A DNA stretch of 64,000 bases from Candidatus Poribacteria bacterium. GTDB taxonomy: Bacteria; Poribacteria; WGA-4E; WGA-3G. Position 1 is the first letter of the stretch, and every line of letters begins with the position of its first letter. Of this stretch, positions 5,422-6,768 are shown piece by piece. The stretch spans positions 12,057 through 76,056 of the forward strand of contig JAPPBX010000049.1 of NCBI GenBank assembly GCA_026702755.1, in the 5' to 3' direction. The position numbers and the translations under genes are program-made. The notes beneath the pieces are model-generated. The model was not told the DNA's origin and ran no database searches. It worked only from the letters and a program-made list of their open reading frames with translations.

Positions 5422-5520
5422 AAGGCGAGGATACAATCCTCGCCAGCGAAGGAGAGGCGTTTTGTGTTTTCCAAAGTGCCCTCTTATTTTCGGGTTTTAC
5501 TATAAGTATAGGTTGGGAAT
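5422..5520. repeat. interspersed repeat family 3 (GGCGAGGATACAATCCTCGCCAGCGAAGG hairpin plus TTTTCGGRTTTTACTATAA tail)
   Basis: Other copies at 10975..11065 and 34727..34790. Confidence 0.65.
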
Positions 5521-5522
5521 TT

Positions 5523-5600
5523 GCTATTTTTAACCCCCTAAATCCTCCAACCCCCCATATCCCCCTTATCAGGGGGTAGGCGACTTTAAGAGGAAACGCG
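5523..5600. repeat. interspersed repeat family 2 (AACCCCCTAAATCC...CCCCCTTATCAGGGGG hairpin ...GACTTTAAGAGGAAA)
   Basis: Nearly identical copy at 9830..9908. Shorter copies at 31296..31330 and 42071..42100. This copy overlaps the last codons of the LTD gene. Confidence 0.7.
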
Positions 5601-6768
5601 TAGGTCTTATATAACCGATGTGCCCTCTTAGGCGCGTGGGAAGGGTGAGTGTCCGACGGATCCCGTCTACAGAGATACATTCGAGTTGATAGTAGTAGAC
5701 GACACGCGGTTTTGCAATCGTATCGGTGTAGGTGTAGGTTTGCCTTTCACCGGTTGTGCCTGCGCCACGGATAACGACAGGATTGATGATCTTGAACTTA
5801 CCATTCCTGGTTGTGCTTCGTTTGATGTTAAAGCCTATGTTGTTCATCTCAGTTTCGGTTGTCCAACTAATAAGGGGGTGTCCGGTGATGTCACGCTTAG
5901 GAAAGAAGCGAGAGAGTTTCACAGGCAAATCGGAGAGTTTCACGGGCAAAGTCGTACGTGCGCGATAACCCGGTGTGCCGTGATCGTTGCGGTGCCCATA
6001 GTAGGTATTGTGCCGTACCACATACTGAGAATCCTTTTTGGCGGTAAGTTCCCATCCGTCTGCCCTTGTGCCATCATACGGATGCCCTGTTGCGGTGTTA
6101 CCTTCATATTCTCGGATAATAGAACTTCGTTGGTTTCCTTCAATCAGCGGAAGTTTCCATTCGGGTATTTCCCCGAGGTTACCCGCGATGTCGCTTATCA
6201 ACTTGCGAGAGGTTTTCCTTCCAGAAGGTGCCTTGAGGGTGACTTTGAAGGCGGTTTGGCTCAAGAGGCGATAACCCCGTGCACCGCCGATAAGGTCTTT
6301 TAGGATGACGACACGATCCACTGGGAGGTCCCCCTTTGCGGTTCCAACGCCAGAGTTAGGTACTTGCTCCGTCACAAGCAGCAAGACTTGGTCGGCATCG
6401 AGTATCTTTGCGCCTAAAGTGAAGGTAAGCTTGGTGGCAAGTACAGACGTATCTTCCGGGTGGTTCTTAATTATAATTTTCCACCCTTCAAGGTTGACTT
6501 TCCGTCTACTTCTGTTGTGGAGTTCAATCCACTGCGGAAGCTTGCCGGAGTTGGTGGCGTACATAATTTCACTGATGGCGATACTGTTGTACTGTGCAGC
6601 TACTGGGACGGTATTATCTTCGTAGGACAATTTCAACTTTGGCGGTTTTGGTGTTTGTAGAGCGATAGCCTCTGGGATTAGAACATCCGTAATGCCTTGG
6701 ATGCCAAATGTCAATATGAGTGTCATAAATATACTAAAGACAAGCCTTTGCGTCATCAAGTCCTTCAT
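5569..6768 (-). CDS. secreted lamin-tail-domain (LTD) protein, 399 aa
   Basis: Signal peptide. LTD signature IAISEIMYA...QWIELHNRS...NLEGWKI. The C-terminal 15 or so codons are encoded by a repeat family 2 element. Confidence 0.65.
   Translation of the reverse strand: MKDLMTQRLVFSIFMTLILTFGIQGITDVLIPEAIALQTPKPPKLKLSYEDNTVPVAAQYNSIAISEIMYATNSGKLPQWIELHNRSRRKVNLEGWKIIIKNHPEDTSVLATKLTFTLGAKILDADQVLLLVTEQVPNSGVGTAKGDLPVDRVVILKDLIGGARGYRLLSQTAFKVTLKAPSGRKTSRKLISDIAGNLGEIPEWKLPLIEGNQRSSIIREYEGNTATGHPYDGTRADGWELTAKKDSQYVVRHNTYYGHRNDHGTPGYRARTTLPVKLSDLPVKLSRFFPKRDITGHPLISWTTETEMNNIGFNIKRSTTRNGKFKIINPVVIRGAGTTGERQTYTYTDTIAKPRVVYYYQLECISVDGIRRTLTLPTRLRGHIGYIRPTRFLLKSPTP

Follow-up and report, generated by a model that had tools for sequence, protein, structure and literature searches.

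The gene for a lamin-tail-domain (LTD) protein in a genome of Candidatus Poribacteria ends within repeated DNA, and the question raised by this locus is what these repeats are and whether one of them has changed the end of the protein. The DNA analyzed, hereafter called the window, is a stretch of 64,000 nucleotides (contig JAPPBX010000049.1, positions 12,057 to 76,056, of assembly GCA_026702755.1). An initial annotation, made from the sequence alone, had described two repeat families, numbered 2 and 3, lying side by side at the 3' end of the LTD gene, and had proposed that a repeat insertion remodelled this end. This description is amended here: the repeats are miniature inverted-repeat transposable elements (MITEs), which carry terminal inverted repeats (TIRs) and are flanked by target-site duplications, and the insertion is an allele common to many Poribacteria lineages, not private to the genome of the window. 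Our reading, held with high confidence, is that family 2 (element A) and family 3 (element B) are two distinct MITEs of Candidatus Poribacteria, that a copy of A in the LTD gene replaced the tail and the stop codon of the protein, and that a copy of B was later nested in it.

Repeat families of the window

Both families are present at the positions initially claimed, far above the level of shuffled controls. The hairpin of family 3, GGCGAGGATACAATCCTCGCCAGCGAAGG, for which no chance match is expected (100 shuffles), was found at 5424-5452 without mismatch, at 10976-11004 with three mismatches and at 34727-34755 with two. The tail said to accompany it, TTTTCGGGTTTTACTATAAG, is limited to 5487-5506 and 11038-11057, so that the description of family 3 as hairpin plus tail at three sites holds for the hairpin everywhere and fails for the tail at 34727. 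Family 2 appears as a pair at 5525-5614 and 9824-9913 (BLAST identity of 88.8% over 80 nt, gaps allowed), which agrees with the recurrence at about 90% identity reported for 9830..9908; the extent given there is too short, the full copy being 9767-9908. Shorter forms had been noted near 31296 and 42071, and we indeed found the family 2 core, CCCCCTTATCAGGGGG, at 31307-31322 and a degenerate form of it at 42085-42100. What had been delimited as family 2 is not the whole repeat but one arm, the left one, of the longer element A. Neither do the two families merely abut at 5520/5523: family 3 (5389-5502) is nested inside family 2. Coordinates are collected in Table 1.

Table 1. Positions of the repeat elements and associated features in the window
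Feature	Position	Strand	Evidence or remark
MITE-A copy 1, composite	5370..5609	-	left TIR TAAGACCTACGC ending at 5609; left arm and core down to 5505
MITE-B copy 1, 114 bp, nested in A right arm	5389..5502	-	TA at 5503-5504 and 5387-5388
Core hairpin of B, GGCGAGGA-TACAA-TCCTCGCC, 9-bp stem	5424..5444		sequence and folding
Core hairpin of A, CCCCC-TTATCA-GGGGG; LTD stop in loop (TGATAA on minus strand)	5561..5576		sequence
Predicted coding segment from MITE-A: two bases of Ile387, then RPTRFLLKSPTP, then TGA	5569..5609	-	translation
LTD protein gene, 399 aa	5569..6768	-	Pfam LTD PF00932, E=9.6e-11; stop TGA 5569-5571
Empty TA target site for B	7523..7524		B copy in L011 and L006 at exactly that TA
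MITE-A copy 2, complete, 142 bp	9767..9908	-	duplication AATAA at 9762-9766 and 9909-9913
MITE-B copy 2, about 114 bp	10940..11053	-	left end TAGTAAAATCCGAAAA, then TA 11054-11055; right TIR degenerate
A core fragment CCCCCTGATAAGGGGGATTTAGGGGGTT without A-type TIRs	31295..31330	-	58-nt spacer of two minus-strand genes
A-type element, 91 bp, core is B-type GGCGAGG hairpin	34681..34771		ends TAGGACTTACGCAA and GCGTAACTCGTG; TTTAG at 34676-34680 and 34772-34776
Degenerate right end of A variant, right arm also with CCCCC hairpin	42060..42110	+	compare L127, L128 ...AACCCCCCTAACCCCCCTTATCAAGGGGGAATGCGTAAGTCCTG

Elements A and B are MITEs

Full copies of element A number 110 (unique copies) in about 1.07 Mb of Poribacteria DNA, and all bear the TIR (T/C)AGGACTTACGCA(A/T)(A/T)T at both ends. 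Their length ranges from 83 to 281 bp, mostly about 102 or 122 bp, and the core is a G5/C5 hairpin, CCCCC-TGATAA-GGGGG. Coding capacity is nil: whichever of the six frames of the A consensus is entered, a stop is met within 0-17 codons. An exact flanking duplication of 5 bp was observed in 60 of 107 copies, versus 1 of 107 in a shifted control, and the duplicated base pairs are 83% A+T against a background of 53%. Empty and filled sites are known for three copies of the window, namely the LTD site (empty in the Poribacteria loci L004 and L008, filled in L006), the intergenic copy 2 located 3' of the CBM9/DUF5916 gene (empty in L006, 2500-2895, reverse complement), and the element at 34681-34771 (empty in L133). 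Element A, being small and non-coding, with TIRs, a duplication of fixed length and empty/filled sites, is a MITE. The left arm of the first window copy matches 133 A left-arm copies. When the left-arm pattern was scanned against one genome per species, at least 120 tiles matched; among the matches listed, 118 are named Poribacteria metagenome-assembled genomes (MAGs) and 2 are MAGs labelled only "uncultured bacterium", every named MAG listed being of Candidatus Poribacteria. The A core of ten loci (L013, L019, L021, L029, L038, L102, L108, L113, L124 and L131) harbours a nested module, about 37 nt in length and with a separate hairpin, CGGGGAATGCCCATAAGGCATTCATACCGTTGATTCT, which is sometimes present twice in tandem.

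Complete copies of element B are 111-137 bp long and flanked by TA; their ends read TATAGTAAA(A/G)CC...GGNTTTACTATA (also written TATAGTAAAACC / TATAGTAAARCC) and their internal hairpin is GGCGAGG/CCTCGCC. Such copies include those of L011 (3354-3472), L006 (5031-5187) and L008 (7323-7455). Comparison of the window at 7515-7530, caattattTAaaatcc, with L011, caatcattTA[TAGTAAAACC...GGTTTTACTA]TAaaatcc, reveals a TA target duplication; in L011 and L006 the copy at the equivalent of 7523-7524 lies 23 nt upstream of the start codon of the CBM9/DUF5916 gene. A second empty/filled pair is given by L004 and L008, upstream of the trypsin-TPR gene. With its TIRs, small size, TA duplication and empty/filled sites, element B is a MITE as well. 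In an alignment of 12 copies of its hairpin, pairing holds in 99% of cells, and a single pair shows covariation, A-U and U-A occurring 6:6; as one event only, this speaks weakly for selection on structure. When read on the LTD strand, the hairpin is followed by the T-rich TTCTTGTAAT and scores terminator-like, i.e. it is a predicted terminator-like structure. Insertion of B into A was also observed elsewhere: in L037 a B copy lies inside an A copy, which resumes past the second TA, and the same nesting is found in L090, L098 and L101.

Replacement of the end of the LTD gene

The LTD protein has 292 homologues, and every one bearing a name belongs to Candidatus Poribacteria. As initially annotated, its open reading frame (ORF) reads into the family 2 copy. 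The derivation of its end from the repeat was also confirmed, though not over some 15 residues: the A left inverted repeat supplies two bases of an Ile codon, 12 codons (RPTRFLLKSPTP) and the stop TGA (5571-5569), which falls in the loop of the core hairpin. Entered in the LTD frame, the A consensus gives xGLTHFLLKSP followed by a stop. Orthologues are alike up to ...TRLRGHIG and then diverge. Repeat-free ones end in ...GHIGSSGRRIHYILWNN (P0009, P0012, P0018) or in ...PRPPYILWQN (P0021, P0017), and the loci without the element at this site end in ...SSGRRIHYILWNN (L004) and ...FTGPRPPYILWQN (L008), whereas the A-bearing loci have ...PTRFLLKSP or a slight variant of it. The old coding end, TATATATTGTGGAACAATTGA (YILWNN and stop), has been kept directly 3' of A in L006, L007, L009 and L010. 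The ancestral tail ...RRIHYILWNN has therefore been replaced by ...IRPTRFLLKSPTP, A lying a few codons ahead of the ancestral stop. Repeat-free LTD orthologues with the same C-terminal residues, named by the initial annotation as the observation contrary to its proposal, were looked for in the orthologue alignment; the repeat-free orthologues there have different tails. That a repeat insertion remodelled the 3' end of the gene is thus upheld, both by the different ends of the orthologues without repeat and by the displaced old end 3' of A. A few further long ORFs of the Poribacteria loci stop inside A copies as well, e.g. in L020.

Proteins of the filled allele are 390-404 aa long and differ in the stop used, which suggests little constraint on tail length. 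Tails following RL(R/K)G vary widely (YILWNN, PFWWKDLNR, GPLIL, PVYIL) and fall into several classes that look unrelated; even where no MITE is involved, this gene end seems unusually fluid. In the AlphaFold2 model a C-terminal beta-sandwich (residues 281-385) has a pLDDT of 85-95 and residues 386-399 fall below 50; since the confident domain stops at 385, the junction at residue 387/388 lies just beyond it. The new tail, a predicted coding extension, would be tolerated because it is situated past the last confidently modelled C-terminal element, in a widely varying region. Among the few DNA sequences available for the LTD set P0001-P0120, these tail classes look like frame-shifted versions of one another.

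Nesting of B in A at the LTD site

The left flank of A copy 1, TTATA (5610-5614), is the counterpart of the TTCTA duplication of the orthologous copy in L006, a locus on a 6-Mb Poribacteria chromosome. There, the LTD site reads ...CATCGGTTCTA, then an insert TAGGACCTACGCATTTCC...AAATTTGCGTAAGTCCTG, then TTCTATATATTGTGGAACAATTGA: the insert is 102 bp long, has TIRs and is flanked by the TTCTA duplication. The orthologous copies of L006, L009 and L010 are intact, with both TIRs present, and the L006 copy is only 2 nt apart from an A copy at the unrelated locus L099, one difference being in the left TIR and the other in the core loop. Downstream of the core the window copy reads GGGGGTTAAAAATAGCAAATTCCCAACCTATAC, which is the subtype of the L006 and L099 copies. 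B copy 1 then follows with a left TIR TAGTAAAACCCG and a degenerate right one (TGGTAAAGTGC), its length agreeing with that of complete B copies (111-115 bp). The 17 nt past B (AGTTTGTTTGAGATGCA) bear a weak likeness to the expected right end of A (AATTTGCGTAAGTCCTG), so that a degenerate remnant of this end may lie at about 5370-5386. In L011, whose LTD protein is 93% identical to that of the window, the same nesting is found, and the B hairpin segment is in addition duplicated in tandem (56 nt).

These observations can be ordered into a scenario. Element A inserted in the LTD coding sequence a few codons ahead of the ancestral stop; translation would then run 12 codons into its left inverted repeat and halt at the TGA of the core-hairpin loop. 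In the lineage of the window and L011, B would later have inserted at a TA of the A right arm, after which the right end of A and the relic of the old coding end would have decayed or been deleted.

Several points weigh against our reading. In the window itself neither the A right TIR nor the YILWNN relic is recognisable, and the nesting there consequently rests on the comparison with L006, L099 and L037. The filled alleles are without 19 nt found in the empty ones (GGTTC[CAGCGGTCGCCGCATACAC]TATATATT), so that at least one more event beyond simple insertion is needed. The AlphaFold2 model of the LTD protein is poor overall (mean pLDDT of 50). Finally, an autonomous element with A or B ends was sought in the 1.07 Mb of Poribacteria DNA and was not found. 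This search considered TIR pairs 400-4000 bp apart and ORFs adjoining solo ends, the candidates being submitted to Pfam; besides one unclassified long ORF, they correspond to ordinary genes (AhpC/TPR, DNA methylases, sulfite reductase and an AAA protein), with no transposase among those classified.

The nested region presents further particularities. Between the LTD-site A orthologues (window 5561-5600 versus L006:7175-7200) two indels flank the core loop, CCTACCCCC...GGGGGATATGGGGGGTTGGAGG versus CCCCC...GGGGG. The long core form matches the other A copy of the window genome (9767-9908), and its presence in both copies could reflect gene conversion between them. A third repeat family, with hairpin GCCCCTACGGGGC and a conserved prefix TACA(G/C)AT(G/A)CC, occurs at 5204-5240 and 5254-5290; further copies are located at 3416-3452, 10599-10681, 24751-24787 and 42145-42227, as well as in other Poribacteria loci. 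The first two adjoin the nested MITEs, so that three repeat families are stacked between the LTD and trypsin-TPR genes. When compared by BLAST with the Poribacteria loci, the segment between B and the family-1 repeats (5286-5388) matched only the orthologous region of L011, and it revealed no further repeat family. Three independent assemblies with an identical LTD protein (L001, L002 and L003) break 93-183 nt past the gene, either within the nested B or where it ends, which indicates that nested repeats fragment short-read assemblies.

Origin of the filled allele

All filled alleles have the same junction, GGTT[C/A]TA joined to TAGGACC, and those that keep the A right end (L006, L007, L009, L010) have an identical TTCTA duplication and belong to one A subfamily, right arm included. 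The shared junction, the duplication and the 19-nt difference from the empty alleles lead us to infer one origin of the filled allele. Its distribution does not follow the relationships of the genomes: filled and empty alleles are intermingled in the LTD protein tree, and the flanking genes group filled L006 with empty L008 (92-94% identity) and the filled window and L011 loci with empty L004 (92-93%). In the 140 nt just 3' of the LTD site, L006 and L008 are 78% identical, versus 87% for L006 and L010. These short segments are suggestive of a spread of the filled allele among lineages by homologous recombination. One may ask instead if the LTD site is a hotspot where A inserted independently in several lineages. 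Such a hotspot would account for the intermingling of alleles, seen in the protein tree as well as within each flanking-gene group, and for the longer core variant of the window and L011 copy compared to those of L006, L009 and L010. Independent insertions would nevertheless have had to produce a junction and a 19-nt difference common to all filled alleles, with an identical duplication and subfamily wherever the A right end survives, and the sequence directly 3' of the site brings together filled alleles from different genome groups. We consider a hotspot improbable and retain a single origin followed by recombination.

The Uma2 site and possible mobile hairpin modules

The initial annotation had also noted that the repeat copy at 34727 touches the 3' end of the Uma2 gene, in a manner similar to the LTD case. 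The adjacency is real: the 91-bp element occupies the spacer that separates the start of the GFO/IDH/MocA gene from the Uma2 stop codon (34786-34788), and with its duplication it ends at 34776, 9 nt from this stop codon; in the empty site of L133 the two genes are separated by 18 nt. Remodelling of Uma2 is ruled out, its C-terminus ...PGFSCPVAQLFE being conserved in all 188-aa orthologues and not derived from the repeat.

This element shows that the GGCGAGG hairpin is a module common to A-type and B-type backbones. Besides B and the A-type backbone of 34681-34771, in both of which it occurs, the hairpin is found on its own at L011:287. A mini-insert of about 23-28 nt (GTTTTTGCTKGGRTGTTTC...; G[G/T]GTTTTTGCT[G/T]GG[A/G]TGTTTCC...CTAGTA) was observed in the loop of the B hairpin at L006:1204, L059:6294 and L084:6884, and in L017 and L090 it stands outside the hairpin loop, next to the G5 blocks of the A core; the insert resembles a yet smaller unit that lands in or beside hairpins. 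A combinatorial system may be imagined in which short hairpin modules (GGCGAGG, the mini-insert, and the GAATGCC/GGCATTC module of about 37 nt found in ten A cores) move independently of the MITE backbones. We regard this idea as rather unlikely; if true, modules targeting hairpin loops by a single-strand (HUH/TnpA-like) mechanism would constitute a layer of mobile DNA undescribed for MITEs.

Mobilisation and alternative explanations

MITEs are DNA transposons without coding capacity, and their movement depends on a transposase supplied in trans from another locus. Since no autonomous partner was found, it is from their anatomy that mobilisation of A and B in trans is deduced. By analogy, the TA duplication of B points to an enzyme of the IS630/Tc1-mariner type; no IS630-family gene, nor any element of that family with B ends, was found in the Poribacteria DNA examined.

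Could the repeats be functional RNA or regulatory motifs selected in place, the overlap with the LTD gene being that of a terminator at a gene end? Both elements fold more stably than shuffled sequences (z = -2.5 to -5.1), the stem of B has been kept through one A-U/U-A swap, and on the LTD strand its hairpin and T-rich run score terminator-like. Moreover the B end TATAGT/TACTATAA resembles a -10 box and, in L011 and L006, precedes a start codon by 23 nt. Against such a role, the whole window gave 0 Rfam matches at the gathering threshold, with sub-threshold hits, at permissive E-values, to unrelated families at 5150-5700. TIRs, exact 5-bp or TA duplications and presence/absence at collinear sites are signatures of transposition, and copies are found in both orientations relative to neighbouring genes and within one another. 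Selection in place is accordingly a very improbable explanation of the repeats, and individual copies may have secondary regulatory effects. The A core was also considered as an intrinsic terminator and set aside, as no T-run follows it on either strand. Hairpins can spread in yet another way, as do the repetitive extragenic palindromes (REP) and bacterial interspersed mosaic elements (BIME) carried on single-stranded hairpins by REP-associated tyrosine transposases (RAYT, IS200/IS605-like), A and B then not being MITEs of DDE enzymes. The short GC-rich hairpin cores, the presence of one hairpin module in different element backbones and the TnpB (OrfB_IS605) gene that adjoins the LTD locus in L006 are in keeping with this mode. 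REPs, however, have neither long TIRs nor target duplications, which are seen here as 5 bp in 60 of 107 A copies and as TA for B, and a RAYT gene was not seen in the window or in the loci examined. We find a REP/BIME nature of A and B scarcely credible, and continue to read them as MITEs.

Other observations in the window and related loci

The TnpB gene of L006 belongs to a TnpB-only element (7380-8870; Pfam OrfB_IS605 and Cas12f1-like_TNB, 372 aa) whose insertion separates the LTD relic from the trypsin-TPR gene. In sample ERZ25067264 it is present in a 51x contig and absent from a 4x contig with an identical LTD protein (compare L007:3980-4012), which indicates a polymorphism within a single sample. 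A 23-bp tandem duplication, TTGTCCAAAGTTTAGTTTCTATA, is found in two copies at 5133-5178, just upstream of the trypsin-TPR gene, and in one copy in L011. The listed ORF 3585..5210 starts inside repeats; orthologues (511 aa, MKANRISLL...) place the start at ATG 5120, so that its first 30 residues are spurious. The window also contains three tandem paralogous genes of about 871 aa (16438..19053, 19280..21898 and 21949..24564; 73-85% DNA identity) and a second tandem pair at 24981-26950.

Significance and comparison with known systems

The LTD locus provides a clean natural example of a MITE replacing the tail and the stop codon of a protein, with the displaced original end still visible in relatives, and two abundant MITE families are defined from it for Poribacteria, a phylum associated with sponges and without cultured member. 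As A and B create spurious ORF extensions, knowing them helps annotation, and their presence or absence could be used to mark strains and to trace past recombination. The understanding of MITEs as such is unchanged by the finding. A literature search combining Poribacteria with MITEs or repeats returned nothing relevant.

Bacterial MITEs, among them Correia/NEMIS, ERIC, RUP, RPE and RU-3, have been reviewed (Delihas 2008, PMC2229807). Elements A and B resemble them in being about 100-200 bp long, non-coding and multi-copy, in carrying TIRs and target-site duplications, and in lying both in and between genes (PMC2229807). Transcripts of bacterial MITEs fold into long stem-loops (PMC2229807), and A and B likewise fold stably. 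They differ from the described families in sequence, being unrelated as far as tested, and in their host, an uncultivated phylum. Among MITEs of the IS630/Tc1-mariner type, a parallel to B is RUP of Streptococcus pneumoniae, a 107-bp element that targets TA and is presumably mobilised by IS630-Spn1 (PMC2229807). B shares with RUP the TA duplication, a length of about 110 bp and short TIRs; unlike RUP it has no matching IS630-family element in the Poribacteria DNA examined, and its link to such a transposase is drawn by analogy of the TA target. Correia elements of Neisseria also duplicate TA, measure about 107-155 bp and exist as long and short internal variants (PMC2229807). B is similar to them in duplication and size and differs in host phylum. 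The Correia TIR starts with TATAGT, as B does. Past these six bases the TIR and the interior would differ between the two, no evidence of an IHF site or of RNase III processing was seen for B, and B is not classed as a Correia member.

Concerning gene ends, fusions of MITEs with ORFs are known, including at the C-terminal end, as for RU-3 in a putative LivJ (PMC2229807). Contrary to fusions in which the MITE is read through in frame, A ends the LTD ORF after 12 codons. The Rickettsia palindromic elements (RPE) are palindromic and listed with open reading frames (PMC2229807). Like RPE, A lands inside a protein-coding gene and alters the protein. In RPEs, in-frame translation yields an internal peptide, whereas A replaces the C-terminal tail and supplies the stop. 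A and B are thus new MITE families, and the change of a gene end driven by a MITE is of a kind already known in other bacteria.

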